DNA from: a virus
Lineage: Duplodnaviria > Caudoviricetes
DNA: 31,404 bases
IMG/VR virus record: IMGVR_UViG_3300025528_000275
Span: 1 to 31,404 of that record
Strand: one strand, 5' to 3'
Shown: in pieces, positions 4,866 to 29,848 of the stretch
Layout of the letters: the number at the start of each line of letters is the position of its first letter
Position numbering within the stretch: the first letter of the stretch is position 1
Notes under the pieces: generated by a model
Databases searched by the model: none
What the model saw: only the letters and a program-made list of their open reading frames with translations
Told to the model about the DNA's origin: nothing
Program-made: the position numbers and the translations under genes

Positions 4866-4931
4866 GCGTGGCGAGACGTTAGCCGCGCGGCGTGCTGTAG
4901 TGCCCTGGCCTGATCAGCCGACTCGCCAGGG

Positions 4932-12345: not shown

Positions 12346-12774
12346 ATGAAGAACCAGGCGGGAGAGCATGATTTCCGAGTCGCCGTGTCGCTCCCCGTCC
12401 CCCTTGATGTGGTGCGCCCCATCCTGGCATGCGGGTTCATCACGATCCCCCACGACCTTCAGGGCATCCCGGATTACGTCGAGGGCATGCCGCTCCCCGT
12501 GCTGGACGTGTACTGCGAAAAGTGCCGTGTCAGCTACGAGGACGCGATCCTCTACCACCCCATATGTCCGGCCGACAACCCCACCACGCGCACACACCTG
12601 CGCGGCGGCCGCCGTGAACGCGCCCCCCGAATCCGTCCCGCACCTGGCACCACCGCCGCCGAGGTCGCGGCGCGGCAGCAGCACCAGCATGCGCTCCGGA
12701 CCGGAGCACGCCTCACCCTCCAGCGCGAGGACGTCGCCGGCATGCAGCGGTCCCGCATACAGGGCCTCGTGTAG
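12346..12774 (+). CDS. Hypothetical protein with CxxC...C...H motif
   Basis: AGGGAG RBS; DVYCEKCRVSYED...PICP...HLRGG; sits between terL and portal. Confidence 0.7.
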   Translation: MKNQAGEHDFRVAVSLPVPLDVVRPILACGFITIPHDLQGIPDYVEGMPLPVLDVYCEKCRVSYEDAILYHPICPADNPTTRTHLRGGRRERAPRIRPAPGTTAAEVAARQQHQHALRTGARLTLQREDVAGMQRSRIQGLV

Positions 12775-13098: not shown

Positions 13099-15513
13099 GT
13101 GGCGCGACGCATACTCCTGCCTGCCCTCCGCGGCCTGGAAACCAAGAACCTCGGCTACGGCTTCGAGCATCCCGCGGCCTGGTTCAACCAGATGACCGCC
13201 GCGGCACGGCGGGCCTGGCCGATCGACCGCGCCGTGGCCGAAGGCATCGAACGCACCGTGTGGGTGTTCAAGGCGGTCAACTCGATCTCCTCGCACGCCG
13301 CCCGGCAACCTGTGCAGGTGCTCGACGGCGACGGCGAACCCGTCGACGGCCACCCGCTCGCCGAACTGCTGAACACCGGCAAGGTCAACCCTCTGGAGAC
13401 CGCCCGCCAGTTCCGTAAACGCCTGTCCGCCCAAATCCTGCTGTCACCGTTCGGCGCGTTCGTGGAGGTCACACGGAACCGGCGCGGCGTGCCCGTGCGG
13501 CTCGACCTGCTGCCGCCGGGCCGTACCCGGCCCGTGCCGGCGGCGACCGGCGCAAACCTTTTGTCCCACTTCGAGACGATCACCCCGACCGGCACCCGTG
13601 TCCCGATCGACCCCGAAAACGTGCTCTGGTTCCGTGACCCGCACCCCACCGACCCGTTCCGCGGGATCACCCCGATGGAAGCCGCCGGCATGTCGGTGGA
13701 CCTGGACTACCTGTCCAAGCTCTACAACGTGATCTTCCTGCGGAACGACGGCCGCCCGTCCACCGTCGTCGGGGTGGAGGGCAGGCTCTCCCCGGACGAG
13801 GCCGAGCGTATCCAGCGCGCCTTCGGGCAGGGTCCGCTCGAGTCCGGCAAGGTGTACGTGGTCAACGGGAAGATCTCGTTGCAGGACCTCGGCGCACGCC
13901 CCCGCGACATGTCCTACAGCGAGATGTCCGCCCGCGCCAAAGAGGAAGTGCTCGCCGCGTTCGGCGTGGGCGAGACCGTGCTCGGCAACGCCTCAGGCAG
14001 GACGTTCGACAACGCCGACGCAGAGCTGTTCCAGTTCTGGTCGATCACGATGGTCGCCCACATGGACATCATCGCCACCGGGTTCGAGCCCCTGCTCGAG
14101 CCTGGGGAGACGCTGTGGCACGACACCAGCGACATCGAGGTGCTGCGCCGCGCCGAGGAGGCCCGCCGCCGCGAGGCCCGCGAGGAGGTCGCCGCCGGCC
14201 TGCTCAGCATCGACGAGTACCGGCAGATCGCCGGGCACGAGCCGATCGACAACCCGCACACCCGCGCGCTGTGGATGACCCAGGGCAAGTCGCCGATCCC
14301 CACCCGGGAAGAGGACGCAGTGCCGCTCGGTGTGGCGTTGCCGACCGACGACACCGCCGCACCCGGCGAGCCGCCCGCCGAGCCGCCCGCCGAGCAGCCC
14401 GAAGGGGAGGGTGTGCCGGGCGTGGTCGAATCCCCCGCGGACGGCACCAGCGACGGCGCCACACCCGAGCCGGACACGTTCGACCCGTCCGACCAGGCCA
14501 CCCGGGACGCCTTCACCGTGCTCCAGGGCGTCATCGACGAGACGTTCCAGACCAAGGCCATCGACCCGGCCGACCCTGAGGCCCAGGCCGAGGAGGATCT
14601 GCGGGAGCAGCTTGCCGCGCTGACCAGGCGGCTTGTGGAGCGCACCGCGGCCCGCCTCAACTCGCCCAAAACCCGCAAGGGCACCAGGCATTTCGAGCCG
14701 GAACCCGCCTACGAGGTGGACACCCGCGTCGGTGACGCCCCGCTGGACGCCGAGCGGATCGCCGACGCCGAGCAGTGGCGGCAGGAGGCCGAGGACACCC
14801 TCGGCCCGCTCGTCGCCGCGGCCGCGGCCGCCGCGATCCTCGCTCTCGGCATCCCCGGCCTCCCCGGCCTCCCCGGCATGCCGGGGATCCCCGGGGTTTC
14901 GCTGCCGCGCACGGCGGGCAGGCTCGCCGCGGCAGCGCTCCGCCCCCGCCGCACCACCACACCCGCCGCGCCGGGGGTGGCGCCCGCCGCGCCGCCCGGC
15001 GGGGACGACAACAGCCCGGACGCCGTCGCCGCACGCATCCGGCAGGCCGCGGCCGAGGCCGCGCACCACGCCACCAGGTGGCTCGCCGACCAGTTCGCCC
15101 AGGCCGCCGCGAAACTCGGCGAGCTCATCGCGGCCGGCGACCGGGACGGCCGCACCGTCGCCGAGATCACCGCCACCCTGCGCTCCCAAACCCCCACCCT
15201 GGAGCGGTGGGCCGAGCATGTCGCGAACCGCATCACCGTTCACACGGTGCACGCCGTGCAGGTCGCCGCGGCCCGGATTCTGGTGGCCGCGGGCGGCATG
15301 GCGACCGCGGTGTGGACCACCATGCTCGACGACCGGGTACGGCCCACGCACGCGGCCGCGCACGGGCAGGCCCGCCCCGCCGGGGAGAAATTCCAGGTAG
15401 GTAAGGCGAGACTGCGGTGGCCGCGAGACATCGAAGGACCGCCCGAAGAGGTGATCAACTGCCGCTGCCGGCTCAGGTGGATGATCTCCCCGCCCTGGTC
15501 GTCTGCGGCGTGA
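13099..15513 (+). CDS. HK97-family portal protein fused to C-terminal MuF-like (Mu gpF/SPP1 gp7) domain
   Basis: Portal motifs VFKAVNSIS, HPLAELLN...NP, FRGITPM, AFGV...LG, LSIDEYRQIAGHEP; MuF tail WTTMLDDRVRPTH...GEKFQVG...LRWPRD...EVINCRC. Confidence 0.9.
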   Translation: MARRILLPALRGLETKNLGYGFEHPAAWFNQMTAAARRAWPIDRAVAEGIERTVWVFKAVNSISSHAARQPVQVLDGDGEPVDGHPLAELLNTGKVNPLETARQFRKRLSAQILLSPFGAFVEVTRNRRGVPVRLDLLPPGRTRPVPAATGANLLSHFETITPTGTRVPIDPENVLWFRDPHPTDPFRGITPMEAAGMSVDLDYLSKLYNVIFLRNDGRPSTVVGVEGRLSPDEAERIQRAFGQGPLESGKVYVVNGKISLQDLGARPRDMSYSEMSARAKEEVLAAFGVGETVLGNASGRTFDNADAELFQFWSITMVAHMDIIATGFEPLLEPGETLWHDTSDIEVLRRAEEARRREAREEVAAGLLSIDEYRQIAGHEPIDNPHTRALWMTQGKSPIPTREEDAVPLGVALPTDDTAAPGEPPAEPPAEQPEGEGVPGVVESPADGTSDGATPEPDTFDPSDQATRDAFTVLQGVIDETFQTKAIDPADPEAQAEEDLREQLAALTRRLVERTAARLNSPKTRKGTRHFEPEPAYEVDTRVGDAPLDAERIADAEQWRQEAEDTLGPLVAAAAAAAILALGIPGLPGLPGMPGIPGVSLPRTAGRLAAAALRPRRTTTPAAPGVAPAAPPGGDDNSPDAVAARIRQAAAEAAHHATRWLADQFAQAAAKLGELIAAGDRDGRTVAEITATLRSQTPTLERWAEHVANRITVHTVHAVQVAAARILVAAGGMATAVWTTMLDDRVRPTHAAAHGQARPAGEKFQVGKARLRWPRDIEGPPEEVINCRCRLRWMISPPWSSAA

Positions 15514-15538
15514 CGTTAACCCGAAGGCTTGGCACCCT
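15512..15538 (+). promoter_or_regulatory. Late-promoter-like element GACGTTA-N14-CACCCT
   Basis: Overlaps the portal stop codon, upstream of probable TTG 15583 of the giant gene. Confidence 0.6.
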
Positions 15539-15582: not shown

Positions 15583-18500
15583 TTGAGCGAGCAGACCGGT
15601 ACCTGGGAGACCAAGGCATCCGTCCGCGGCGCGGTGCGCACCGCGTCAAGGATCGTCGGCCGCGGCAAATGGGACCCGGACCTTCACCCACGGGACCGCA
15701 AGGGCAGGTTCATCGAGACCGGCGCCCGGGTGAAGGTGCCGGGCGGCCGTACCGGCACCGTCGTCCGCAACACGGGGCACGGCTACATGGAGGTCCGGCT
15801 GGATGACGGGAAGGTGCACCGCATCCACCGGAACTATCTGGAGGTGCAGCGCCGCCCGGACGGTACCCGCCCGCACGGCCAGGCCGCCGTACGGAACCGG
15901 TCCGCCCAGCCCAAGCCCATGCCCGTCGAGGCGCCGTCCCCGGACGCCACCGAGTACCGGCCGAAAGGCCGCGACTCGCGTGTCCCGGTCGGCGAGCTCA
16001 CCCAGGGACAGCCGGTTCTGATTTTCGGCCGGAACCGCAACGGTGACCGGGTCGCCCGGGTCGGCCTGGTGTCCAGCGTGCGGCAGCGGAACAACGGCGA
16101 CTACGTGGTGGACCTCGGCGACGTCGGCGAGGTGTACACCGACGAAGACGGGGTGGCGCGGCCGCTCGACTCCGACCGGCTTCGCCGCCTGATCGACGCC
16201 ACCCGCTCCGGTGATGACGCCGAGGCCCAGCGGATCGCTCAGGAGATCCAGGCCGAGATCCTGGCCGAGGACGACGACGAGTTCGACCGTCTCGACACCC
16301 CCGGCACCGGCGCGGCGGGCGGCCGCCAGGCCGGGGACACGCCGCGGCAGCAGGAGCGCCCCCAGACGGCCAGGCCGGGCGACCTGTCCCCCGGTGACCG
16401 GGTGGAGTTCCAGGTCCGGGTCAACGAGGGGAACGCGGCCCGGTTCGCCGGTGAGGGCGCGGTCAACCCGCCGCGTCCCGGCCAGACCGTGACCGTCCGC
16501 GGCGTGGTCGACCATGTGCAGGACGACATGCTCGGCATGCAGGCGGTGCGTCTGCGTGGCGGCGCCCAGTGGCAGTCGGCCGGCGGCGGCGGACCCCTGG
16601 ACGAGGGGGCGCTGGATTGGCCGCTGGACACAGACCACGAGGTGACCAAGCTGGGCCGTGCCGAGCCGCGGCGTCGCCGCGGCGGCGGCGGTGACGCGGC
16701 GGCGGCCGCCCCGGCGACGCAGGGGGCGTTGTTCTACGACCGGGGTGAGGACGAGTCGGGCACCCCGGACATGTTCACCGCTCTCGAACGGGAGGAACAG
16801 GCCCAGGCCCCGGCCGCGCCGTCCGGCCGCGGCGACGAGCGGACCCCCAGCGCACCGGAGGCCCCGGCCACGCCGGCCCGCGGCGGCGAAGTGACGGTGG
16901 ATGAGGCGATGGACGCCGTGCGCCGCGCCTACTTCGAGATGAGGCCCCAGCCCCGACCTGCCGGGGACTATGCGCCAGTTTCGCTGGTGGAACTGCGTAA
17001 CCGGCTGTCCGACATTCCGCGGGAGACGCTGGACCAGGCCCTTGCCCGGCTGAACCTCGAACCCGACATCTTCCTGTGGCCCGAGTCGAATCAGAAGATC
17101 CTCACCCGTGAGGACCGTGCCGCGGCGATCCGTCTCGGCAACCAAGACCTGCACTGGATCCAGATGGAGGCGAGCGCCCGCCGGGCGGACACGCCCGCCC
17201 CCGGCCGCGGCGACGAGCGGACCCCCAGCGCACCGGAGGCCCCGGCCACGCCGGCTGCGGACACCCCCGACGCTCGCCGCACCTCCCCGGACACGCCCGA
17301 CACCCAGAGGGTTCCGGATGCCGGGGACGACATGGACCCCCAGCCTGGCATCCTCTCCGACGAGGACACCGCCCGCCTTCGGGAAGCGCTGGACGCCTAC
17401 CGGGCCGCGCTCGCCGGGGACGACCCTGCCGCGGTGGCCGACACCCGTGACGCGGTCAGGAACCTCACCCTGGACATCTCCCGCCGCGCACCCGCAGGCG
17501 ACCAGGGGCGGCGCGTACGCGAGGAGACCGACCGGATCAACGAGGCCGCCCGCGGCCGGTTCCTGGAGTGGGACGAGGCGCACTCTGGGGCGCTGAACGC
17601 CCACCTATCGCAGCGTGCCGAGCGGGCGGCGGCCGCCGCCGGCCTGTCCGAGGATGCCCGCCGGGCCGCGGAGAACGGCGACATGGACCGCGCCCGGCAG
17701 CTCATCGAGCAGGGCCGCCGCGCCTACCCGGATCTGCTGGACTGGGACAGCGTCGAGCGGGATGCCCGCTCCCGGTACGTCGACCTCGACGAGATCGAGT
17801 CCACCGACGACGGCAATCCGCCGTCCCCGCCCGGCATGACCGCGGCACGGCGCGCCGAACTGGTCGCGGCGATCGAGCGGGAGGCCGGCGGCTACGAGTT
17901 CACCGGCGAGCCGGGCCGGTACGTGGCCGAGATGATGGACGCCAACCGCGAGGAGTGGGACTGGATCAACGCCTACATTCAGGCCCACCCCGAGGTGCTG
18001 ACGTGGAACCCCGCCGAGCGGGACCGGCGGCGCCGCGCCCGTGAGCTGCGCGAGCAGCGCACCCGGGAGCTGCTCAACCAGGCGTTCGAGCGGTTCCAGG
18101 CCGGGGAGATCGACGAGGCCGAGCGGATGGTCGACGAGGCCGAGCGGCGCGCGCCCGGCATCGTGCCCTATGACCAGATCCGCGCCCAGATCGCCGCCCG
18201 CCGCGCCGAACTCGGCGCTCCGGAGACGCGAACCCCGGACACCCCGGACGCTCCGGAGACGCGAACCCCGGACACCCCGGACGCTCCGGAGACGCGAACC
18301 CCGGACACCCCGGACGCTCCGGAGGCTGGGCGGGATGTGCTGGACCAGGAACGGGCCGAACGTGAACCCGGCCGGGTCGATGAGAACGAGGCCCTCGCCC
18401 GCCGCCTGCTCCCCCAGGTCGAACAACTGATCGACAGGGGTGATTTCGACGCCGCCCGGGCGCTCCTCGACGAGGTCGACCGGATGGCGCCCGGACTGGA

Positions 18501-21500
18501 CGAGATCGAGGAGCTGTCCAACCGGATCGTGCAGCGCCGCGAGGAGGCCGAGCGGGAACGCGGCATCATCGCCCGGCTCCCCGACCCTGAGGTGGCGACC
18601 AGCCAGCAGATACGCGACGGGTTCGACCTGATCGGCATGTCGAACACCGGTGTTGCCGCCGAGCGTCTGCACAGCGTGCTCGACCAGATGCCGGACTTCC
18701 GGCGGGTTGGGCGGCTCGAGCAGGAGCGGATCCGTGACCAGTTCGGCGAGGTGTTCAACCTGCTCCGGCAGGAGATCGAAAGCGTCGACGGCCGGGAGCA
18801 GCGGCGGTGGGCGCTGCGGGCGTTGAACCGGCTGGAGGAGCTCGCCGGTATCAAGGGCGTCAACCACGTCGGCCAGTACGAGAGCGACTTCCGGAACTAC
18901 CTCCGCGAGCGGTCCGACGATGAGCTGATCGAGCAGATCCGCTCGATGATGGAGGGCCACCCCGATTTCCCGATGGTGAAGCTGGAGCTGGCGCGGCGCG
19001 GCTACAACGAGGTCGGCGAGCCCGCCGCCGGCTCCCGGCACGGGCTGAACAACCCGGTGGAGGCCACCCCGGACATGAACGGCGCCCGGGTGCGCGCCGT
19101 CATCGACGGCGGCGAGATCCTCGAGGGAACGCTCGAGGTGACCCGCGGGGAGTCCGGGCCGGCGTACTACATGCTGCGGGACCGGGACAACCATCCGCGG
19201 CTGCTGGGCAATTCCGACGACGACCGGGTGTGGGTGGAGCGGCTGGACACCGCGCAGACCGGTGGCGAGACACCCACCCCGGACACCGCGGACACCGCGG
19301 CGGATGCGCCTGGGCCGCGGGCGACCCAGCGGCGGGATCGGGCGGACGGCGACTCCACCGAGCGGAGGGTGGCGGCCGACGAGATCCGGCCGGGTGACCG
19401 GATCACCTTCTACCGGCGGGAAGGCGGGGTGCGCGGCGGCCCGACCGCGCGCCGCATGGTCTACCGTGAGTCGATCCGCTGGACCGGCACGGTCCCCGAC
19501 GACTACCGGCCGGGGCGGCCGGTACGGCTGGTCGACGTTGTCGAGGTGGAGGAGGGGCATCCGCCGCGGGCGGTGCTCGACCCGCCGGCGATCCGCCTCC
19601 CCGACAGGGTGGATCGGCTGGGTGATGATGAGGCCCGCCGTTCCGCCGAGGAAGGCCGGCGGATGCGGGAGGAGGCCATACGGAACCGTGAGGAGCTCCG
19701 GGCCGCGATGGAGGCGCAGCGGCGGGCGCTCCTGGTGGAAGTCGGCGGCGAGGGGCTCGCACAGGCCGCCGACCGGTTCCAGGCCAACCGTGAGGTGCCG
19801 CTACAGGACCCGCGTGATCTGGAAGCCGACTGGTATGCGGTCGATTCGATGCTGGCAGATGCGCTCGCCGGCGACCTCGAGCGTGAACGGCGCTACCAGC
19901 TCGAAAACCTCCGCACCGAGTATGCGACCTCGCTGTTTTACGCCGGTGGCGACCACCGCCGGGCGTTGCGGGACGGCGAGGTAGGCCGGAGGGTTGCGGC
20001 CGACCTGGCCGGGCCGCGCATGGACGAGGTGCTGGGGTCGGCCAGTGACGCCGACCTGGCGGCCGCGATCCGGTACGCCGAGCGGCAGGCCCGCCGCGCC
20101 GAGGCCGACGGCGACCACGACGAGGCCCGCACGTGGCGGGAGGCGGCCGAGCAGGCTCGGCAGACCATCGCCGACCGGTCGTTCCGGCACCTGGCCGAGC
20201 AGCCCGAGCCGCAGGCGACACGCGAGCCGGGTTCGGTGCGCGAGCCGGACCAGGTGTCCACCCCGGTCGCGTCTCCGGAGCAGCGGGAGGCCGCCCTGTC
20301 CGCGGTCGAGGGTGCCGCGGGCCTGGCCGCGCACGGCCCGGAGCGGTTGCCCGACCCTGAGCCGGGCGTCGACAACGACCCGGTGATCTCCCAGCTTCCG
20401 GACACCTACGACATCGCCGAGCATCTGCTTCCCAGGGCGATCGCCAAGCTGGAGGCGGCCAACCGGCGTGCCGAGCGGCTGGGCATCCCCGAACGGTTCA
20501 CCTGGGAGATCACCCGGTACGAGGCCGAGTGGGAAGAGGACGACGACGAGAGCGGGGTGCGCCGCCACTTCACCCAGCCGCGTGTCCGGCTGCGGCTGAA
20601 CCGGCCGGTGGTGCGCCGCAACGGGTGGACGTTCGTCGGCACGTTGACGTGGAGCAATGACGCCGGCCTTGTGACCCGTCTGGTGCCGGGCGAGTCGCTC
20701 AAGCGGCGCCCGGACCGGCGGTGGTGTGACCACTGCCAGACCGAGCGGGACCGCCGCGATACGTTCATCGTGCGGCACGAGGACGGCACCGAGCTTCAGG
20801 TCGGGAGCGACTGCCTCGAGGCGTTCACGGGTGTCAGCCCGTCCGGGCTGTGGATGCTCGGGTTCTCCCCGAACCTGACCGACGACAACCTTCTGTCGGC
20901 GGGTGAGGACGCGCTCGGGGACAGCACCCGGCAGACCGTGCGTGCCGCGGACGTGCTCGCCGTGGCCACCGCGGTCGTCAACCGGCACGGGTGGGTGTCG
21001 CGGGCCGCGGCCGAGGAGCGGGGCGGCCGCTCCACCGCCGAGCTCATCCGCCAGGCCCTGTTCCCGGGCGGGCACGGCGAGCCGGAAGAGGTCAAAAAGT
21101 GGCGGAGCGAGATCCACGAGCTTGCCGCGCGGATGCGTGACGACGTCGCCGAGATCCAGGCGTTCGCGGCGAACTACCCGGGGGACGACGAGTTCTCCAC
21201 CAACCTGCGCACCCTGGCGCAGTCGGAGTGGATCGACCGGCGGAACATCGGTGTGCTCGCCTACGCGGTCGCGGCCAAGATGCGGCACGACGAGGAAGTT
21301 GCGCGGGCGGCGGCCGTCCCCGGTGAGAGCCCGTACGTGGGCCGGCCGGGTGAGCGGATCAGGGACGTCGAGGCGCGGATCGTCGGCAAGCAGTACATCA
21401 GCGGCCGCGAGTGGGGCAGTAGCGAGCTGGTCACGCTGGTGACCCCCAAGGGGCAGGTCATCAAGTGGTTCAAGTCCGGTGGCCTGGGCAGCGAGTTCCG

Positions 21501-24500
21501 GATCGGTGACACGGTGCTGCTGTCCGGCACGGTGGACAAGCACAGCGAGTTCCGGGGTGTGCCGGAGACGATGGTCAAGCGGGCCAAGCTCACCCGGGTT
21601 TCGCGGGTGGGCCGGCCGGGTGACCTTGACCGGCCTGAGCCGACCCCGCCGGGGTGGCTGGCTGTCGGTGACCGGCTGGAGCACCGCAGCGGCCGGTTCG
21701 GCACGATCGAGGACATCAACCGGCGGCACGGCGCGGACGCCGACCGGGTGATCTACGACATCACGCTTCGGGACGACGACACCGGTGAGCTCGTCACGAT
21801 CTCGGTCTCCAGCCAGGATTCGGCGTACCGGGTGGCGCAGGCCCCGCACACCCCGCTCGAGCACGCCGAGGAGGTCGGCTCCGGCCTGATCGGCGAGGGT
21901 GACCGGCTGTGGGTGAACGTGGACGGCAAGGGCCGCGCCGAGGTCACCGTGCAGCGGTTCCTAAAGGACAAGGAGCTCGAGCTCGGCACCACCCCGGACG
22001 ATGAGTCCGTGCGGCCTGGTCTGCGGCGCCGCTACCGCGACGACATCTATGACGACAACGGTGACCCGATCCTGCCGCGGCGCCTGACTCAGTACCGGGT
22101 GGCCGAGGTCAAGGACGACCAGGGCCGCACCTACCTGGTCGGCCTGCCCGGCCACGAGCGGGTGGTGCGGGTGCTGCCGCCCCCGCCGCCGCCGAAGCGG
22201 ACCACCCCGCGCGACGTGGAGGAGGCGGCGCGCGAGCGGGCCGAGAGGCGTGTCCGGGACTTCGCGCCCGCACCCCTGAAGTCCGGGTACATGGGTGATT
22301 TCTACGCCTCCAGCTTCGCGGTGGGCGACACGATCCGCCACAAGGTGCAGCGGGACGACGGCAGCGTGCACGCCGAGACCGTCACCGGCACGATCGTCGA
22401 GATCCGCGGCAACGAGATGACGTTGCGGGACGCGGACGGTCGGCTGCACAGGGCTTGGGTGCACACCGTCAAGGGCGACGACGTGATCAGCCTGACCGAT
22501 CGGCCGCCGGTTGAGGAGGTCACCCCGGGCAAGGTCCGCGACGGTGACCGGCTGTGGGTGAACATCGGCGGCGGCATGGTCAAGGCCACCGTCACCGGCA
22601 AGCGCCGCCCCGAACGAAACGAGAGGCTCCGCGACCAGCAGCTTAATGAGGTGTCGGCAGCGCCGAGCGACACCGTGATCCAGGTCCGCACCGACGACGG
22701 GGAGACCGGCGAGTTTCTGGTGCAGCGCGGGATTCCGGTCTACCGGGTGATCGACCCCGACCGGATCGCCGCCGCGTGGAACGCCCAGCCGGTTGATCTG
22801 GACATGCTTGCCGCGCGGGCGGAGGCGTTGGAGGCGTTCCGCCGCGAGCGCGGCCTTACCCCGGAGGCGTTGGAGCGGGTGGAGCAGGCGGCGTTGGATG
22901 AGGCGCTGCGGCGGGTGGAGCAGTACGGCGACATCGCGCGGGTGACCGTGTCGTCCGAGCCGCTCGGGTTCCAGATCGTGCCGCACCGCAAACCGTCTCG
23001 GGTGCCGCGCGGTCTGGACACGAAGATCCCGCTGCTGCGGCCGGACGGCCGCACCTGGGACGGGGAGGAACTCCCCTCCTCCACCCCCGCGGCCGCGGCC
23101 CCGGACGCGCCGGGCACGCCGGACGTCCCGCGCGCCCCGGAGGTGCCGGGCACGCCGGAGGCGGCGGGCACGCTGGAGGCCCCGCGCGCCCCAGAGGTGC
23201 CGGGCACGCCGGAGGCCCCGGCCACGCCGGAGGCGGCGGGGGCGGCCCTGCCGGCCCGGCCCGCAGGCCCCGACCCGGCGGCCAAGCCGTACACGTTCCG
23301 CCGCAACCCGGCCGGCGGCTACAACGTCCACACGGACGGGCAGGACCGGCCGATCGGCCGCGTGTGGCGGGACGGCGCCTACTGGTATTGGGAGCACGGC
23401 GACGGCACCACCTCCACCGGTGAGCGCACCCGGGACCGTGCGGCCGCCGCCCTGCGGAACTACCACGACAGCCTCGACGCCGAGCACGGCACCCCCGAGC
23501 AGGTGCCCGCGGCCACGCTCGCCGAGGGCGACCGGATCGACACCCCAAACGGGGTCGAGGTCGTGCAGTCGGTGCAGACCGTCGAGGGGGTGACGTTCAC
23601 CACCAGCCGGGACGAGCACGACCGGGTCACCATCCGCGCCCACACCGAGGGGGCGGCGGTGACCCGCCGCCGCGGCGGCGCCAAGCCCGCCCAGGTGAGC
23701 GAGCCGTACGCGCGGGACGTGCAGCCCGGCCAGTGGCTCATCGTCGACGGCCGGCCCATGCAGGTCACCGCGGTCGACGACGTGGACGACCGGCGGGTCT
23801 TCCACGTGGCCGGTGAGGGCGGTGCCACCACCGTCGAGTTCGGGCGGGACACGCGGGTCACGGTGGCCACCAACCTGCGGCCGCGCCGTACCCGCCGCCG
23901 CGCCGCCCCCCCACCCACCGAGGTCGAAGGGGTGCGGCTGGAGCCGATCCCGGAGGGGACGGCGTCGGCGCGGGTCCGTCTGCGGTCCGACATCCGCAAG
24001 CGGGTCCTCGGGCTGGGGATCGAGCGGGACGAGACCGCCAGCGAGCAGGCGCGGCAGGCCGCGGCCCGGCTGCGCGCCTCCCAGCCGATGACCGCCGAGC
24101 AGATGCAGGCGCTCGCCGCCCACCTGCGCGGCATGGCCGGTGACGAGGGCAGGCCGGCGGTGCAGCGGCGAGCCCTGCACCGCGCCTCCCAGTGGGTTGA
24201 GGCCGCCTACGCCGGCCTGGCCGGGTACCCGGCGCCGCCGCACGACCCGGGCCGCGACACCCTCCAGCGGGTTTCGGCGGGCAACCTGACCAGCGGGGAT
24301 GTGATCGCCCTGCCCGACCGGGACGGCCGGGTGGAGTTCGTGCGCGTGGTGGAGACCCGCCAGTACCGCGGGTTCCCGCTCGTGTCCGCCCGTATCGAGC
24401 GGAACGACGGCACCCGTGAGGAGCGGATCCTCTCGGCGCGCGCGGACGTGTGGCTGGCGCCGGACCTGCCCGAGGACCAGGAAGTGCGGCCGGCGGACGC

Positions 24501-27369
24501 CGGGGAGCTGGTGAGCGAACACATTCCGCTGTCGCGGCTGGAGGTGGGTGACGCGGTCGAGTACCCGGTGCGGGACGGGGACGTGGTGCACCGGTACGGC
24601 CGGGTCGCGGAGATCACCCGCCTGTCCGGGCCGTGGGACCCGGAGGACACCTACCTGGTGCGGCTTGAGGTGGTGGACGGGGAGACCGGGTTCCCGGTCG
24701 CCTCGGACGCGGTCACCATGACCTCCCGCGGGTGGCCGTCGATCATCCGCACCGAGCGTGGCGAGCTGTCCCGGAACCAGCCGTGGGACGCGGTGCTGGA
24801 TGATTCCGGCGGTGACGGGCCGATCGAGCACGGCCAGATCGGGCGGGGTGACCGGATCACCGTCACCCCGGTTGCCGGGGAGCCGGTGGCCGGCACGGTG
24901 GAGAACGTCACCCCGGTCATGGAGGGTGACCGGCGGGTCGGGTCTTTGGTGACGATCCGCACCTACAACGACACCGTGCAGGCGGTTCCGATCCTCGACG
25001 GCGACGACACGGCGATCACCCGTCAGGCGCGCGCCGACGACAACGTGCGGGCGAGCATCGACCGGCAGATGCGGCGGCGCGCCCTCGAGGAGCGGCGCCG
25101 CCGGGTGGCCGCGGCGATCGCCGACGCCGAGAGCCGGCTGTACCGGGACGCGTCGGCGCGGATCATGGCGGAGCTGTCCACCAGGCCCGTGTACGGCCCC
25201 GGCGAGGCTCCCCGCGGCGGCGACGATGAGGGGATGCGGGTGTGGGCCACCGCGCCCGACATGGTGGAGCAGGCGTGGCGGGATCTCGACCCCGGCCCGG
25301 TCGCCGAGCAGATCGCCGACGCGTTCGGGGTGACCGGGCAGCAGCGGGAGGCCCTGATCGAGCGGGTGCGGCCGCTGGTGGCGCAGGTGCAGGAGCGGGC
25401 GATGGACAACATGGTCGCGTCGATCATGGATGTCGAGCCGCTGCCGGGTGAGACCTACGACCGGGCGCTTCGCCGCATGATCGAGCAGCTCCAAAACGAC
25501 CCGCCGATTAACTTCGCGGTCATCGGCCGGGACCTGGGGGCCTACGACCTGGACCCGGTCGAGGCGGCCGGCGACCTGCCGGACATCCCCCGCCCCGAGG
25601 GTGGGAGCATCGCCGACCGGATCGCCGCCTACCGGCGTGCCCTGCCGGAAGACCTGGCCAACTTCGGGCACAAGCAGGTCAACCGGCCCGTCTTCCGGGA
25701 GCTGGACCTGGACCAGCTTTCGGAGCGGTACGCGCCGGAGATGGACACCATCACCGCGTGGGTGCCGGACACCGCGCCGGACGGTGGGCCGGGCGAGCAC
25801 GCCATGCGGCACCTTGCGATCGTCAAGGCCGCGGGTGCCGAGATCGACACGGAGTTCACCCGGCGGCTGGAGACGGACGAGGCGTACCGGAAGGCGGCCG
25901 ACGAGCTGGAGAAGGCCCGCGACGCTGTGCGGCAGGCGGAGCAGACCTACGTCAACCGGCGCTCCACCGGCCGGTGGGCCGACCGGCGGCGTATCCGGGA
26001 GGCGCGGCAGCGTGAGGAGCAGGCCAAGCAGACGCTCATCGCGGCGCGGCGGCGGGTGTTCGTCGAGATGATGTCGGAGGTGCGGTCCCTCGGCGGTGTC
26101 GAGCTGGACTACCGGCGCAGCGACGGCACCCCGATCGGGGATGACGCCCGGCCGATGATGGACGAGGTGCACCGGCTGTACCCGTCCGACTGGCTCGCGG
26201 CCCTGGCCGAGCGCGGCCCGATCACCATCCGTTTCGGGGAGCGCGGCGCCTACGACCCCGACAGCCACAGCATCGTGTTCGCCTCACCGGACGAGCACGA
26301 GCATCGCCGCACGATGGCGCACGAGCTCGCGCACGCGATGGAGCACACCATCCCCGGCCTGCGGGAGGCCCAGGAAGCGTACCTGTGGGAGCGCACAGCC
26401 CGCGGCGAGATCGGGGAGCGGGAGCGGCCCGACATGGCGCCGATCGACGGCAACCCCGACCAGGTCGGCTACCCGGACGCTTTCCCGCAGGAGTACAGCG
26501 GCCGGGTCTACCCGTCCGGGAACCGTGAGGTGCTCGCCACCGCGATGGAAGACCTCATGACCGGTGGTGACTACCTGGATGACGACTACCGGAGGTGGCT
26601 GCTGGGCACGCTCGCGCTGATCGGCACCGACCGGAACGGGCCGGCCCGTGACCCGCTCGCCGGGGTGAACCTCAACAGCCTGTCGGTCGCCGACCTTCAG
26701 GACCTGCTGTCGAACCTGGAGTACGGCTCGGCGGCGTGGCAGAAGGTGATGGCCGAGCTCAGGCAGCGGGACCACGACAACGACCCGCTGGCCGGGGTCG
26801 ATCTTGACCGGCTCTCGCTGGAGGAACTGGCCGACCTGATGGGTGAGGTGGACGACCCCTACAGCCTGGCCAGGATCAACGAGGCGCTGGACCGGCGGGA
26901 GCGGCTGGACCGTGAGGAGGAGGAGCGGTACGCGCGGGCCGAGCAGCTCGTGGCCGCGGGGACGCACACCTGGGCCGAGGCGTGGGCGGAGGTGTACGGC
27001 CTGTCGGCGGAGCAGGTGGAGCGTGAGGAGCGGCTCGCCCAGCTCGGCATGCTGGGCGGCCGGCGGCCGGGCGAGACCCTCGACCAGTACGTCACCCGGC
27101 AGTATGACGAGTGGCTGGAGGCGCGCTGGCTGGCCGCGGAGGCCGCGACCAACGGGTACATGCTCAACCGGGAGGGCCGGGCGCGCGGCATCGACCCGCG
27201 TACGCTGTTCTACGGCTCGTGGGACCGGGTCAAGAAGTACGGCAGCCAGGAGCTGTTGAACTGGTTTGAGGCGAACGGGTGGATGAACAAGACCGAGTTC
27301 CGCGCGCAGATGCTCCAGCGTGAGCGTGACGTGCGGGCGGCGAAGCGGTCGAAGGAGGCGAGGCGATGA
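15583..27369 (+). CDS. Giant (~3,930 aa) multidomain 'polyvalent'-type phage protein with zincin metallopeptidase motif
   Basis: Uninterrupted 11.8-kb ORF with high GC3; N-terminal WDPDLHPRDRKGRF; many xxGDxV beta modules; CDHC...QVGSDC plus OB-fold-like segment; HELAH...EVLA. Start TTG 15583 (GGGGG RBS) preferred to 15529. Confidence 0.88.
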   Translation: MSEQTGTWETKASVRGAVRTASRIVGRGKWDPDLHPRDRKGRFIETGARVKVPGGRTGTVVRNTGHGYMEVRLDDGKVHRIHRNYLEVQRRPDGTRPHGQAAVRNRSAQPKPMPVEAPSPDATEYRPKGRDSRVPVGELTQGQPVLIFGRNRNGDRVARVGLVSSVRQRNNGDYVVDLGDVGEVYTDEDGVARPLDSDRLRRLIDATRSGDDAEAQRIAQEIQAEILAEDDDEFDRLDTPGTGAAGGRQAGDTPRQQERPQTARPGDLSPGDRVEFQVRVNEGNAARFAGEGAVNPPRPGQTVTVRGVVDHVQDDMLGMQAVRLRGGAQWQSAGGGGPLDEGALDWPLDTDHEVTKLGRAEPRRRRGGGGDAAAAAPATQGALFYDRGEDESGTPDMFTALEREEQAQAPAAPSGRGDERTPSAPEAPATPARGGEVTVDEAMDAVRRAYFEMRPQPRPAGDYAPVSLVELRNRLSDIPRETLDQALARLNLEPDIFLWPESNQKILTREDRAAAIRLGNQDLHWIQMEASARRADTPAPGRGDERTPSAPEAPATPAADTPDARRTSPDTPDTQRVPDAGDDMDPQPGILSDEDTARLREALDAYRAALAGDDPAAVADTRDAVRNLTLDISRRAPAGDQGRRVREETDRINEAARGRFLEWDEAHSGALNAHLSQRAERAAAAAGLSEDARRAAENGDMDRARQLIEQGRRAYPDLLDWDSVERDARSRYVDLDEIESTDDGNPPSPPGMTAARRAELVAAIEREAGGYEFTGEPGRYVAEMMDANREEWDWINAYIQAHPEVLTWNPAERDRRRRARELREQRTRELLNQAFERFQAGEIDEAERMVDEAERRAPGIVPYDQIRAQIAARRAELGAPETRTPDTPDAPETRTPDTPDAPETRTPDTPDAPEAGRDVLDQERAEREPGRVDENEALARRLLPQVEQLIDRGDFDAARALLDEVDRMAPGLDEIEELSNRIVQRREEAERERGIIARLPDPEVATSQQIRDGFDLIGMSNTGVAAERLHSVLDQMPDFRRVGRLEQERIRDQFGEVFNLLRQEIESVDGREQRRWALRALNRLEELAGIKGVNHVGQYESDFRNYLRERSDDELIEQIRSMMEGHPDFPMVKLELARRGYNEVGEPAAGSRHGLNNPVEATPDMNGARVRAVIDGGEILEGTLEVTRGESGPAYYMLRDRDNHPRLLGNSDDDRVWVERLDTAQTGGETPTPDTADTAADAPGPRATQRRDRADGDSTERRVAADEIRPGDRITFYRREGGVRGGPTARRMVYRESIRWTGTVPDDYRPGRPVRLVDVVEVEEGHPPRAVLDPPAIRLPDRVDRLGDDEARRSAEEGRRMREEAIRNREELRAAMEAQRRALLVEVGGEGLAQAADRFQANREVPLQDPRDLEADWYAVDSMLADALAGDLERERRYQLENLRTEYATSLFYAGGDHRRALRDGEVGRRVAADLAGPRMDEVLGSASDADLAAAIRYAERQARRAEADGDHDEARTWREAAEQARQTIADRSFRHLAEQPEPQATREPGSVREPDQVSTPVASPEQREAALSAVEGAAGLAAHGPERLPDPEPGVDNDPVISQLPDTYDIAEHLLPRAIAKLEAANRRAERLGIPERFTWEITRYEAEWEEDDDESGVRRHFTQPRVRLRLNRPVVRRNGWTFVGTLTWSNDAGLVTRLVPGESLKRRPDRRWCDHCQTERDRRDTFIVRHEDGTELQVGSDCLEAFTGVSPSGLWMLGFSPNLTDDNLLSAGEDALGDSTRQTVRAADVLAVATAVVNRHGWVSRAAAEERGGRSTAELIRQALFPGGHGEPEEVKKWRSEIHELAARMRDDVAEIQAFAANYPGDDEFSTNLRTLAQSEWIDRRNIGVLAYAVAAKMRHDEEVARAAAVPGESPYVGRPGERIRDVEARIVGKQYISGREWGSSELVTLVTPKGQVIKWFKSGGLGSEFRIGDTVLLSGTVDKHSEFRGVPETMVKRAKLTRVSRVGRPGDLDRPEPTPPGWLAVGDRLEHRSGRFGTIEDINRRHGADADRVIYDITLRDDDTGELVTISVSSQDSAYRVAQAPHTPLEHAEEVGSGLIGEGDRLWVNVDGKGRAEVTVQRFLKDKELELGTTPDDESVRPGLRRRYRDDIYDDNGDPILPRRLTQYRVAEVKDDQGRTYLVGLPGHERVVRVLPPPPPPKRTTPRDVEEAARERAERRVRDFAPAPLKSGYMGDFYASSFAVGDTIRHKVQRDDGSVHAETVTGTIVEIRGNEMTLRDADGRLHRAWVHTVKGDDVISLTDRPPVEEVTPGKVRDGDRLWVNIGGGMVKATVTGKRRPERNERLRDQQLNEVSAAPSDTVIQVRTDDGETGEFLVQRGIPVYRVIDPDRIAAAWNAQPVDLDMLAARAEALEAFRRERGLTPEALERVEQAALDEALRRVEQYGDIARVTVSSEPLGFQIVPHRKPSRVPRGLDTKIPLLRPDGRTWDGEELPSSTPAAAAPDAPGTPDVPRAPEVPGTPEAAGTLEAPRAPEVPGTPEAPATPEAAGAALPARPAGPDPAAKPYTFRRNPAGGYNVHTDGQDRPIGRVWRDGAYWYWEHGDGTTSTGERTRDRAAAALRNYHDSLDAEHGTPEQVPAATLAEGDRIDTPNGVEVVQSVQTVEGVTFTTSRDEHDRVTIRAHTEGAAVTRRRGGAKPAQVSEPYARDVQPGQWLIVDGRPMQVTAVDDVDDRRVFHVAGEGGATTVEFGRDTRVTVATNLRPRRTRRRAAPPPTEVEGVRLEPIPEGTASARVRLRSDIRKRVLGLGIERDETASEQARQAAARLRASQPMTAEQMQALAAHLRGMAGDEGRPAVQRRALHRASQWVEAAYAGLAGYPAPPHDPGRDTLQRVSAGNLTSGDVIALPDRDGRVEFVRVVETRQYRGFPLVSARIERNDGTREERILSARADVWLAPDLPEDQEVRPADAGELVSEHIPLSRLEVGDAVEYPVRDGDVVHRYGRVAEITRLSGPWDPEDTYLVRLEVVDGETGFPVASDAVTMTSRGWPSIIRTERGELSRNQPWDAVLDDSGGDGPIEHGQIGRGDRITVTPVAGEPVAGTVENVTPVMEGDRRVGSLVTIRTYNDTVQAVPILDGDDTAITRQARADDNVRASIDRQMRRRALEERRRRVAAAIADAESRLYRDASARIMAELSTRPVYGPGEAPRGGDDEGMRVWATAPDMVEQAWRDLDPGPVAEQIADAFGVTGQQREALIERVRPLVAQVQERAMDNMVASIMDVEPLPGETYDRALRRMIEQLQNDPPINFAVIGRDLGAYDLDPVEAAGDLPDIPRPEGGSIADRIAAYRRALPEDLANFGHKQVNRPVFRELDLDQLSERYAPEMDTITAWVPDTAPDGGPGEHAMRHLAIVKAAGAEIDTEFTRRLETDEAYRKAADELEKARDAVRQAEQTYVNRRSTGRWADRRRIREARQREEQAKQTLIAARRRVFVEMMSEVRSLGGVELDYRRSDGTPIGDDARPMMDEVHRLYPSDWLAALAERGPITIRFGERGAYDPDSHSIVFASPDEHEHRRTMAHELAHAMEHTIPGLREAQEAYLWERTARGEIGERERPDMAPIDGNPDQVGYPDAFPQEYSGRVYPSGNREVLATAMEDLMTGGDYLDDDYRRWLLGTLALIGTDRNGPARDPLAGVNLNSLSVADLQDLLSNLEYGSAAWQKVMAELRQRDHDNDPLAGVDLDRLSLEELADLMGEVDDPYSLARINEALDRRERLDREEEERYARAEQLVAAGTHTWAEAWAEVYGLSAEQVEREERLAQLGMLGGRRPGETLDQYVTRQYDEWLEARWLAAEAATNGYMLNREGRARGIDPRTLFYGSWDRVKKYGSQELLNWFEANGWMNKTEFRAQMLQRERDVRAAKRSKEARR
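16823..17255 (+). repeat. 55-bp perfect direct repeat (16823-16877 and 17201-17255)
   Basis: CCGGCCGCGGCGACGAGCGGACCCCCAGCGCACCGGAGGCCCCGGCCACGCCGGC twice, offset 378 nt (126 codons). Confidence 0.9.
18217..18324 (+). repeat. 33-bp coding tandem repeat, 3 copies plus partial (APETRTPDTPD)
   Basis: GCTCCGGAGACGCGAACCCCGGACACCCCGGAC x3, then GCTCCGGAG. Confidence 0.92.
23101..23240 (+). repeat. Degenerate Pro/Glu linker repeat (PRAPEVPGTPEA x2, 9-bp periodicity)
   Basis: Translation PDAPGTPDVPRAPEVPGTPEAAGTLEAPRAPEVPGTPEAPATPEAAG. Confidence 0.75.
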
Positions 27370-27626
27370 TGGCGCGGCGCGCTGGCGGCGGGAAAAAGAC
27401 GGCCACGGCCACGGCCGCGGCAGCGGCCGCGGCCGCGGGTTCGGGCGGGCAGGTGACCGCGTTGCAGGTCCGCACGGCCCGCCGGCTCGGCCGGCTGCAC
27501 GCCCAGATCGGGCGGCCGATCACCGCCTGCCCGTACAAGCCGGGTAAGGACGGTGCGCCGACACCGCTGATGGAGGCGTACGTGCACGGGTACAGGCAGG
27601 TCAAGCCGGGCGGGCGGGTGCGGTGA
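27366..27626 (+). CDS. Rmf/CrpP-like small protein
   Basis: GRLHAQIGRPITACPY...EAYVHGY resembles the Rmf pattern GxxAxxxG...CPY...WxxGW; ATGA overlap with giant gene stop; AAGGAGG RBS. Confidence 0.6.
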   Translation: MMARRAGGGKKTATATAAAAAAAAGSGGQVTALQVRTARRLGRLHAQIGRPITACPYKPGKDGAPTPLMEAYVHGYRQVKPGGRVR

Positions 27627-27886
27627 TGGCCGGGTACATCGTCACCGGGTATGTGGACGGGGTCGCCTACACCGCCACGGTGGGTGGCGGTCCGTGGCCG
27701 AACGCCAAGGCGTCCGCGGGGGTGCTGTCCGGGCCGCCGCGGGTGGTCAACCTGGTTGCGGCGCGCGCCGGGGAGACCATCCGCAGGCCCCACCAGCCTC
27801 CGGTCACGGTGGATCTGGACGACCCGGATGCGGTTCTGGCGGCGTTGCGGGCGTGGACGCGGGTGTCCGAGGTGCAGCGGAGGTGA
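27626..27886 (+). CDS. Hypothetical protein (86 aa)
   Basis: TGATG overlap with upstream gene; globular composition (YIVTGYVDGVAYTATV...DLDDPDAVLAALRAWT). Confidence 0.7.
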   Translation: MAGYIVTGYVDGVAYTATVGGGPWPNAKASAGVLSGPPRVVNLVAARAGETIRRPHQPPVTVDLDDPDAVLAALRAWTRVSEVQRR

Positions 27887-28074: not shown

Positions 28075-28101
28075 GACGTTAGGGGGGGTTTGCGGCATCC
28101 T
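28075..28101 (+). promoter_or_regulatory. Late-promoter-like element GACGTTA-N14-CATCCT
   Basis: Between hairpin and GGGAGG RBS / ATG 28142. Confidence 0.65.
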
Positions 28102-28141: not shown

Positions 28142-29848
28142 ATGCCCGGATTGGCGACGCTGGAGTACAAGGCGATCAGCACGGCCGCGCCACGGCCCGA
28201 CGTGGGCACGTCGGTCGGCGAAGAGGGTGTGGTCGAGGCGCTGGTCGCGGTCACCGGTGTGCCGGACAACGTCGGGGACGTGATCGTCCCGGGTGCCTTC
28301 AGGGAGACGCTCGCCGTGCGCAAGCCCAAGGGGGTGTTTTCGCACGACACCACGACGTGGGTGGCGCGCACCGAGGTCGTCGAGGAGCTGATGCCGGGCG
28401 ACCCCAGGTTGCCGAAGACGACGAAGGACGGCCGGCCGTGGCCGCGGCAGGCCGGGGCGCTGTACGTCAAGGCCCGGTTCAACCTGCGCAGTGATGACGG
28501 GCGTAACGCCTACGAAAACGTCCGGTTCTTCTCCGAGACCGACGAGTGCGAGTGGAGCATCGGGTACAAGGTGCCGAAGGGTGGGGCGCGGCGCGGCCCT
28601 GATGGGTTGCGGTACATCCACCGGCTGGACCTGTACGAGTACAGCCCGGTTTTGTTCGGCGCCGCCTCGCAGTCGATGACGCTGAGCGTCAAAGCCGGGG
28701 TTCCGGGGGTGGCCGACACCCCCTCGGATCGGGCGGCGGTGCGGCGGCTCAAGCGGTGGTATGTGCGCGGTGGTGGCGCGGCACGCATCCGCTGGGGGCA
28801 GCCGGGCGACTTCATGCGGTGTGTCCGTATCGCCTCCAAGCACATGTCCCCCGAGCGGGCGCGCGGGTTCTGCAACCTGAGGCATCAGGAGGCGTTGGGG
28901 GTGCCGCCGGGCAAGGAGCACAAGACCAGGTTCGTGGACGATGAGGACCTGGGGAATCTGCTGAAGAAGGCCGACCCCGACACCAGCGGTGGTGGTGGGG
29001 GGACGTTGCGGTTCGCCGGGCGTGTCCGCAAGCGGATCAAGACGCGGCCGGGTGAGCGGCCGTGGGGTCTGCTCCCCTCCCCCGGTGATGCCGCGGCGGC
29101 GGATGGTGAGCTCGACGAGCCGGACGAGGCCACGGCCGCGGGCGCGGGCGCGGGCGCGGCCGGGGACACGCCGGACGTGCCGGGCGCGCCGGATGTGCCG
29201 GATGGCGTGGCCGGGGACGAGCCCGACGCCGGCGTCGGCGACGGCGACGAGGATGAGGACGAGGACGAGGCGGCGGGCATGGAGACCAAACGGGATGCCC
29301 GTATCGAGCTGCTGCGCGCCGCCGGCGTCGACATCCCCCTGTCCCTGGAGGAGATCCTCGCCCGGATCGGCCGTGCCGTGGAGAAGTACTTCGGCGCGCA
29401 CGACATCCCGGTCAGGGTGGAGGCCACCTACCCGGACACGGTGCTGGTGTCCACCTACTCGTGCGACTGCACCGTCTACCAGGTGCCGTACGAGATGGAC
29501 GACGCCGGGAATGTCACGCTCGGCCGGCCCATCCTCGTCACCCCCGGCGACGGCCCCGGCGTGGACCGGCAGGACGTGGGGCGGGAGATCGGCGAGGTGG
29601 TCGCCGAACTGGAGGAGATGCTGGAGTCCAAGGCGGCCGGGCACGTGATCGGGCAGCGCACCGCCCGCAAACTGCGGTCCGCGGTGGAGACGCTGGTGTC
29701 GCTGCTGCGTGAGGCCGGGATCGAGATCGGCGGTGTCGAAACCCCGCCGTGGGTCGACCGGAACAAGCAGGTCGACCCGTTGCCGCCGGAACCCCCGGTG
29801 ATCCCTGACTCGACCTCGGTTTCGGCGCTCCCCGTCGAAATGCGGTGA
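28142..29848 (+). CDS. HK97-family prohead protease with long C-terminal extensions (568 aa)
   Basis: DNVGDVIVPGAF, FSHD (His), EWSIGY (Ser), LDLYEYSPVLFGA (Glu); GGGAGG RBS before ATG 28142. Confidence 0.92.
   Translation: MPGLATLEYKAISTAAPRPDVGTSVGEEGVVEALVAVTGVPDNVGDVIVPGAFRETLAVRKPKGVFSHDTTTWVARTEVVEELMPGDPRLPKTTKDGRPWPRQAGALYVKARFNLRSDDGRNAYENVRFFSETDECEWSIGYKVPKGGARRGPDGLRYIHRLDLYEYSPVLFGAASQSMTLSVKAGVPGVADTPSDRAAVRRLKRWYVRGGGAARIRWGQPGDFMRCVRIASKHMSPERARGFCNLRHQEALGVPPGKEHKTRFVDDEDLGNLLKKADPDTSGGGGGTLRFAGRVRKRIKTRPGERPWGLLPSPGDAAAADGELDEPDEATAAGAGAGAAGDTPDVPGAPDVPDGVAGDEPDAGVGDGDEDEDEDEAAGMETKRDARIELLRAAGVDIPLSLEEILARIGRAVEKYFGAHDIPVRVEATYPDTVLVSTYSCDCTVYQVPYEMDDAGNVTLGRPILVTPGDGPGVDRQDVGREIGEVVAELEEMLESKAAGHVIGQRTARKLRSAVETLVSLLREAGIEIGGVETPPWVDRNKQVDPLPPEPPVIPDSTSVSALPVEMR

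Follow-up and report, generated by a model that had tools for sequence, protein, structure and literature searches.

The Giant Gene and Its Neighbours

In the window analysed here, a single virus record with a length of 31,404 bases, the plus-strand frame 15583-27369 runs for 3,928 amino acids (aa) without a stop. This giant gene lies between a portal-MuF fusion upstream (13099-15513, +; PF04860 and PF04233) and the genes of an S78 prohead protease (28142-29848, +) and an HK97-type major capsid protein (30044-31390, +) downstream, all assigned by Pfam. An earlier note, made from the letters alone, had proposed both the open reading frame (ORF) and this slot, and both stand. GC3 per 200-codon block stays at 0.86-0.95 along the full length of the giant, as in the neighbouring real genes, which rules out an artefact ORF, and its TTG start is consistent with those of its relatives in sequence comparison. 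Two small genes on the same strand, at 27366-27626 and 27623-27886, are coupled to it by 4-nt overlaps, in line with the coupled small genes of the note.

Pfam returned no match for the whole giant, and sequence searches of the PDB gave nothing significant for its C-terminus, its cargo, the whole protein, the C-terminal domain (CTD), the N-terminal barrel or a wHTH-like part. Neither NPPY/F nor Walker A motifs appeared in a motif scan, in agreement with the earlier statement that no helicase or methylase motif was recognised, and an IgA-binding NCBIfam match turned out to be an artefact of Pro-rich sequence. A tape measure or tail protein, the match that the earlier note had named as speaking against its reading, was looked for and rejected: the giant has no tail-module position or family match, and the related phage Gilgamesh has a separate tape measure gene.

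A conserved DNA motif, which is a putative late promoter, precedes the giant (15512-15538, +), and a motif scan placed a second copy before the protease gene (28075-28101, +). These two matches compare with 0.04 expected; as the pattern was built from the giant's own upstream region, only the protease copy counts as independent. A scan of 12 relative loci recovered the motif before the giant in 10, and it stands before the protease in loci L054-L057; the shared promoter of the earlier note survives as a DNA motif with a putative promoter role. Its 7-base core occurs five times on the plus strand of the window (2.4 expected), the five including sites before the portal region (12810), before the capsid gene (29921) and at 4875. 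Elsewhere in the window, the terminase large subunit (9193-12096) bears a LAGLIDADG intein (about aa 114-500), which is also found in L054 and L056 and is missing from several relatives. Between terminase and portal, a 142-aa Cys-containing gene with no library match (12346-12774) is conserved in 9 of the 15 genome loci described below.

A Family with Conserved Ends

With the N-terminal 98 aa of the giant as query, 11 other proteins of 2,801-6,259 aa were recovered among 36 candidates, together with 40 IMG/VR loci, and an alignment search yielded 15 genome loci in Microtetraspora, Nonomuraea, Planomonospora, Actinomadura and a Nocardioides MAG. The closest relative is a Microtetraspora MAG locus (53% over aa 2633-3927), for which reason a Streptosporangiales host is likely. 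In the survey of neighbourhoods that the earlier note had advised, the giant has a portal on its upstream side and a protease on its downstream side in 10 of the 15 genome loci, the other five being ended by a contig or locus boundary, without the giant, or different. The slot is likewise occupied in the cultured Streptomyces phage Gilgamesh by gp48 (QFG13240.1, 4,624 aa, hypothetical), which resembles the window giant in its leader and HPR-barrel (41% over 78 aa), its peptidase-like domain and its CTD, with an 87-aa-like gp49 and an Rmf-like gp51 nearby. It differs in that HExxH is lost, the CTD is internal and doubled, the middle is another one and PHROG 2319 is lacking.

Two stretches are conserved among relatives, aa 1-240 and aa 2633-3928, the latter 1,300 aa at 30-53% identity in Streptosporangiales relatives, whereas aa 1501-2600 were matched in no locus. 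By sequence comparison, then, these are giants of 2,800-6,300 aa in the portal-MuF/protease slot of Streptosporangiales and Streptomyces phages and prophages, with conserved ends and a swappable middle. The middle holds a DarB-like methylase-SNF2 module, identified from Pfam SNF2, helicase and Eco57I matches in the relatives, in 26 of the 40 IMG/VR loci (a lower bound, these loci ending 10 kb past the start) and in 5 of the 15 genome loci; it is absent from Gilgamesh. Of the 56 related loci taken together, 31 carry the adenine methylase-SWI2/SNF2 dyad; P0004 has NVPF where NPPF would be expected. The window giant has no such dyad, and a DarB-type methylase-helicase identity was rejected for it. 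Among single members, P0003 (3,881 aa) has, besides the DarB-like module, an HPR-barrel in its interior (aa 2870) and ends in a zeta-toxin domain (E 1.3e-23), and one Planomonospora genome harbours two such prophages (L057, L058), the giant of one with the module and that of the other without it.

The N-Terminal Leader and Barrel Module

The giant starts with a leader ending in E-x-K/A (15583-15618, +), in which K11 and A12 are invariant in alignment A2, followed by a motif, HPR..GRF, and a small SH3/KOW-like beta-barrel (15670-15858, +). The motif had been read as HPRD..GRF in the earlier note and was recovered in the motif survey; together with the relatives it points to a predicted head-targeting module. 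PDB matches of the barrel to KOW, Tudor and SH3 barrels are weak (E 0.07-0.3). An acidic-x-Lys or E-x-K stands ahead of HPR..GR[FW] in 61 of 67 occurrences, the remaining six being smaller extra genes. As regards the neighbouring proteins, motif scanning counts two E/Q-x-K sites in the portal-MuF fusion, four (all E-x-K) in the protease, three in the capsid protein, none in the terminase and one, that of the leader, in the giant. HK97 processing cleaves after lysine, and by this analogy and the conservation of the leader its E-x-K is a predicted prohead-protease site; a literature search for an E-x-K cleavage rule found no confirming paper.

Smaller genes between giant and protease in L058, L060-L063 and L065 start with the same or a related N-terminal module. 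Their tails are either GNAT-like, with a PF00583 match that stays below cut-off (E 0.002), or resemble ADP-ribosyltransferases, the latter by eye only. Of the extra genes at L058:21229-26583, L060:14817-18128, L061, L062 and L065:19054-20533, some are followed by genes of 49-87 aa, and from sequence this group looks like head-loaded effector-immunity cassettes.

The Variable Middle and Its Cargo

An optional domain of ~95 aa (16885-17178, +), wHTH-like according to the earlier note, has homologues in P0002, P0010, L053 and L061, and no match was obtained for it in phage or PDB sequence searches. Further on, a variable helical region (17350-19032, +) is present in 0-2 loci; the TPR-like helices of the earlier note find an echo in TPR_14 (E 1.5e-4), which is below cut-off. 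The zinc block fared better, since a full-length PHROG 2319 protein was matched at 20404-21594 (+; aa 1608-2004, E 1.5e-58), and the C/H/C/C residues of this cargo, a predicted Zn site, are invariant in 12 of 12 alignment rows. The cargo model (pLDDT 79) begins with an alpha/beta part, contains the C/H/C/C site and a helical part, and closes with a C-terminal domain of five strands. This last domain is what the earlier note had labelled OB, a label that no library search bore out; binding of Zn and nucleic acid is predicted. Elsewhere PHROG 2319 is a stand-alone gene of ~400 aa in 58 phage records; it occurs in none of the other giants examined, and in the ESM Atlas the cargo matches viral clusters without names at 0.97. 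A second cargo fusion was considered in L067 and rejected, as the OB-like match there belongs to a different frame that lies ahead of the large ORF.

Four barrel-like repeats come next (21643-22782, +), which are member-specific by a leave-one-out test and locus comparison, then a Pro/Glu-rich linker found by repeat scan (23008-23289, +), and then the conserved chassis of five barrel-like repeats and helical segments (23479-26076, +), delimited by the relatives and the same test. The barrel repeats of the earlier note stand in part: 11 of 14 hand-picked candidates outscore at least 199 of 200 shuffles, in a test that is biased by their having been chosen by motif. Its Pro-rich linkers are real as three exact repeat sets, and these are not at every domain junction.

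Such an array of about 11-14 small barrels and Pro-rich linkers would also suit an outer capsid decoration or adhesin, whose barrels on their stalks would bind the cell wall or mycelium while the zincin degraded a surface protein. IPT/TIG-domain genes do lie in the same interval of relatives, where L054-L057 and L060-L062 have them after the 87-aa-like gene and ahead of the protease (PF01833 E 5.5e-16 in L060), and not in the window. On the other hand, the same chassis carries DNA-acting cargo, the leader motif is held in common with portal, protease and capsid, and no match to adhesin or bacterial SH3 families was found; a place on the outside of the capsid is hence very improbable.

The Zincin-Like Domain and the 87-aa Gene

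Beyond the chassis we find a zincin-like metallopeptidase domain (26077-26631, +) with HExxH at 26320-26334 (aa 3580-3584) and E3649 as third ligand, all of them invariant in 12 of 12 aligned Streptosporangiales-type members, as expected for the HExxH peptidase of the earlier note. The AlphaFold model of aa 3270-3928 (mean pLDDT 83), in which a three-strand sheet precedes the HExxH helix, is rich in long helices and bears out the helical C-terminal domain that had been proposed. A Foldseek search with this 659-aa model gave no PDB match at E<=0.001, its rows being dominated by long helices, and in Pfam the zincin domain has only a weak DUF6782 match (E 0.0075).

The 87-aa gene (27623-27886, +) stands after the metallopeptidase domain in relatives, as revealed by an HMM of the loci. 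In 36 IMG/VR loci the ORF ends at the peptidase domain, and an 87-aa-like gene comes next in 33 of them, a similar-sized gene being present in the other three (E 0.003 in L103; broken by the contig end in L101); the same order holds in L067. The gene has no library match and no tblastn match in cultured phages, and its profile does detect Gilgamesh gp49. HExxH is lost in 32 of the 36 IMG/VR relatives, with the peptidase fold and the 87-aa gene retained, and the distances of the gene do not track the peptidase (partial r 0.25) better than the CTD (0.52). An enzyme-inhibitor pair made up of zincin and 87-aa protein therefore appears unlikely: because the gene outlives HExxH and does not preferentially track the peptidase, its product is more likely to bind the domain or serve as a structural partner than to confer immunity.

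This retention, the conservation of the C-terminal 1,300 aa and the long helices of the model would fit as well an inner-head structural or ejection protein, with ends that organise DNA or form an entry conduit, small genes that encode assembly chaperones and a cargo that is a mere passenger. Such a protein should hardly vary so much in length as this family does or so commonly carry enzymatic cargo (methylase-SNF2, zeta toxin). Moreover, the hydrophobicity of the giant peaks at only 0.9, that is, it has no transmembrane segment, and the CTD and the Rmf-like gene are both absent in some records. A purely structural role is thus rather improbable, and injection of a multi-effector remains the preferred reading.

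The C-Terminal Domain and the Rmf-Like Gene

The helical CTD at the tip of the giant (26917-27366, +), a candidate toxin, is common to MuF-like proteins of cluster K and G mycobacteriophages and of SV1. The C-terminus of phrog_1752 matches it at aa 3746-3918 (E 6.6e-14), and the domain has matches in 249 records of cultured phages, of which 214 are Mycobacterium phages. The matching proteins, annotated as MuF-like or as capsid maturation protease, include Amelie gp6 (E 8.6e-27) and Hammy gp9 (E 2.6e-28). In IMG/VR it was detected by profile scan and not by single-sequence scan, and in the ESM Atlas it reached 0.81 only. Its alignment has invariant G, S and W and no recognisable catalytic motif, and among Streptosporangiales members the domain is retained, not swapped.

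The small gene that follows (27366-27626, +) is Rmf/CrpP-fold-like and may encode the corresponding immunity protein. Its NF041887 match (E 2.6e-5) reaches 23.6 bits and falls below the curated cut-off of 40; a profile made from its Rmf-like relatives matches SV1 gp5 (E 6.5e-19), and SV1 gp5 passes that cut-off. An Rmf-like gene is next after the CTD in all 12 genome loci with sequence for both, as well as in 20 of 21 IMG/VR loci by HMM and in the 21st by eye, none of these IMG/VR loci showing the 87-aa gene. The same holds for five of seven cultured phages inspected (SV1, Amelie, Hammy, Sneeze and Mwe-JY05), while Wheelbite gp17 and Warren gp54 have a CTD without an adjoining Rmf-like gene. 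In Mwe-JY05 (L073:4248-10363) the CTD protein and the Rmf-like gene are followed by a large gene, and the CTD protein and the large gene have in common another short motif after 'VELA', perhaps a second address.

In 33 of the 36 peptidase-terminal records, many of the 33 being incomplete, the CTD lies inside the giant in 23 and is absent in 10; an Rmf-like gene, about 1 kb past the giant, accompanies 22 of the 23 and none of the 10. The Fisher p of 1e-7 for this table is inflated because the joint absence represents only two changes on the tree, and its use as a set of independent samples was rejected. L114 has a CTD without a local Rmf-like gene, and unrelated genes are inserted there (L114:3240-4500) after the 87-aa-like gene, where the Rmf-like gene would be expected. 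A whole-record Rmf search, insensitive and noisy, gave weak partial matches in 4 of the 10 CTD-negative records and missed some locally seen genes. Rmf-like and CTD distances correlate (r 0.95, partial 0.82), a result that joint inheritance of adjacent DNA alone can explain, and a complex prediction for the two proteins scored 0.00 against a mark of 0.32, with controls not folded, which speaks neither for nor against the pair.

In published screens, M. smegmatis could not be transformed with Amelie gp6 or with Waterfoul gp8, and Hammy gp9 was given a toxicity score of 3; Hammy gene 10 is absent from the toxic list. A stop at codon 2 rescues Waterfoul 8 incompletely, which its authors ascribe to truncated products and which would be compatible with a C-terminal toxin. 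The toxicity is that of whole 850-aa proteins, not mapped to the CTD, and capsid and tape-measure proteins are also reported as toxic on overexpression, so that toxicity does not necessarily mean an effector, a point in favour of the structural role discussed above. Altogether, a toxin-immunity pair of CTD and Rmf-like protein is predicted from sequence at somewhat less than even odds. If true, it would explain the extreme toxicity of cluster K gp6, gp8 and gp9 and what phage 'ribosome modulation factor' genes are for. It also bears on the failure to clone the cluster K 'MuF-like' gene by itself in M. smegmatis and on the function of the Rmf-like gene behind it. For these cluster K genes, the names 'capsid maturation protease' and 'ribosome modulation factor' may be wrong.

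Warren gp54 (Microbacterium phage, L072:2390-2743) is a stand-alone CTD of 117 aa outside the head module, and 18 of 33 related records are proviruses. Both observations would agree with an unpackaged toxin-antitoxin or anti-superinfection protein that acts in the lysogen or the late-infected cell, and anti-superinfection roles of polyvalent proteins are allowed by Iyer et al. (PMC5512222). The fixed head-module position of the giant, the motif in common with the protease gene and the conserved leader argue against such a protein, for which there is little chance, and agree with packaging of the giant.

Comparison with Known Systems

The giant is best read, from its sequence, as a phage polyvalent protein, probably head-packaged. 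As described by Iyer et al. 2017 (PMC5512222), these proteins, with P1 DarB as type member, are very large and multi-domain, are encoded among virion genes and bear a zincin HExxH..E. P1 DarB itself is a head protein that shields DNA in cis, according to the same source. In this line, the giant unites disparate domains in one polypeptide (PHROG 2319, zincin, CTD and barrels, with predicted activities), is encoded among late/virion genes and has a zincin hub, as seen in HExxH, the downstream E and the three-strand sheet of the model. The methylase-SWI2/SNF2 dyad links it to polyvalent proteins through its relatives, which carry the dyad, whereas the window giant does not. It differs further in lacking a Pfam LPD; a leader/HPR-barrel module is peculiar to it, and two small genes accompany it as partners. 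The main text of PMC5512222 mentions neither SH3 nor RMF.

MuF polymorphic toxins (Jamet et al. 2017, PMC5576092) are similarly found next to the portal and end in a candidate toxin or metallopeptidase, after which come ORFs shorter than 150 aa; a small ORF is also found downstream of the C-terminal domain of the giant. The giant nonetheless has no MuF domain, since PF04233 occurs only in the portal fusion upstream, and its tip is conserved, not polymorphic, the middle being what varies. A strict MuF toxin was accordingly rejected, and with it the idea of the giant itself as a MuF protein. The CTD of the giant is common to cluster G and K proteins; PMC5576092 lists the MuF4 of the cluster-G-type phage Angel as having an extension without a predicted domain. 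The cluster K/G 'MuF-like minor capsid / capsid maturation protease' (PHROG 1752, with Amelie gp6, Hammy gp9 and Waterfoul gp8) has a homologous CTD and then an Rmf-like gene, a neighbour checked for Amelie, Hammy and Sneeze, the homology of Waterfoul being taken from PMC11797047. These proteins differ from the giant in their length of about 850 aa, their N-terminal carrier and the lack of zincin or barrels.

A functional likeness only exists with the T4 internal proteins and Alt, whose sequences, protease family and cleavage residue are unrelated to those of the giant. In T4, cargo reaches the prohead by means of a short leader, which the head protease then cuts off, and Alt is described as packaged in the head. 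No description of the giant family or of the CTD/Rmf-like pair was found in a literature search whose coverage includes few subscription journals, and virion proteomics was found neither for the family nor for the cluster K MuF-like proteins.

A Proposed Model for Head Loading and Delivery

The reading that we favour, with a probability of roughly two in three, is that of a modular giant with conserved ends and a swappable middle, which would be loaded into the prohead and injected to aid phage establishment, its predicted CTD toxin being neutralised by the Rmf/CrpP-like protein. That the giant is packaged inside the head is probable, and its nature as an injected multi-effector slightly less so. 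The multi-effector had been proposed in the earlier note and is supported by position, the conserved E-x-K leader, the late-type motif and, above all, the DarB-like relatives in the same chassis; the unrecognised architecture of that note is, however, not unique, the giant being one cargo variant of the Gilgamesh gp48 family. Documented in the sequences are the gene and its position, the N-terminal module, the variable cargo, the intact HExxH..E and the two linkages between a domain and a small gene.

According to this model, the giant would be co-expressed late with the protease through the shared upstream motif. The HPR..GRF/barrel module would recruit it to the prohead, where the S78 protease may cut the leader at E-x-K, as in portal, protease and capsid. 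The giant could then be cut into units by the protease, the built-in zincin or both; cutting is proposed because a chain of 3,928 aa can exit through the portal only in pieces or unfolded. Once delivered, the cargo would act on incoming DNA or the host, by methylation against restriction in DarB-type relatives and possibly by Zn/OB-type nucleic-acid binding in the window giant. Finally, the CTD would exert its toxicity, held off in the producing cell by the Rmf-like protein.

An unannotated giant gene is now tied to a family with a cultured member, Gilgamesh, which is open to direct tests of packaging and processing. As a protein the giant is of a kind to be expected, in a chassis that had not been described. 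What it adds is a candidate address, E-x-K plus HPR..GRF-barrel, that is short, seems portable and may serve to bring proteins into phage heads, and a toxin-immunity candidate that reaches well-studied mycobacteriophages. The pairs of a domain and a small gene, CTD with Rmf-like gene and HExxH domain with 87-aa gene, are new here. More tentatively, and at less than even odds, all this could amount to an undescribed head-delivery system of actinomycete phages, in which the portable address brings giant and small effectors into HK97-type heads, together with a new CTD/Rmf-CrpP toxin-immunity family.

A last observation concerns the protease gene. The prohead proteases of several relatives (L053:26126-27829, L054-L056, L060-L062) bear a 2H phosphoesterase (PF13563 E 7e-13 in L053, with Acb1 at only E 0.097), and the window protease bears instead a PHROG 6439 domain, which suggests that the protease is a second swappable cargo slot.
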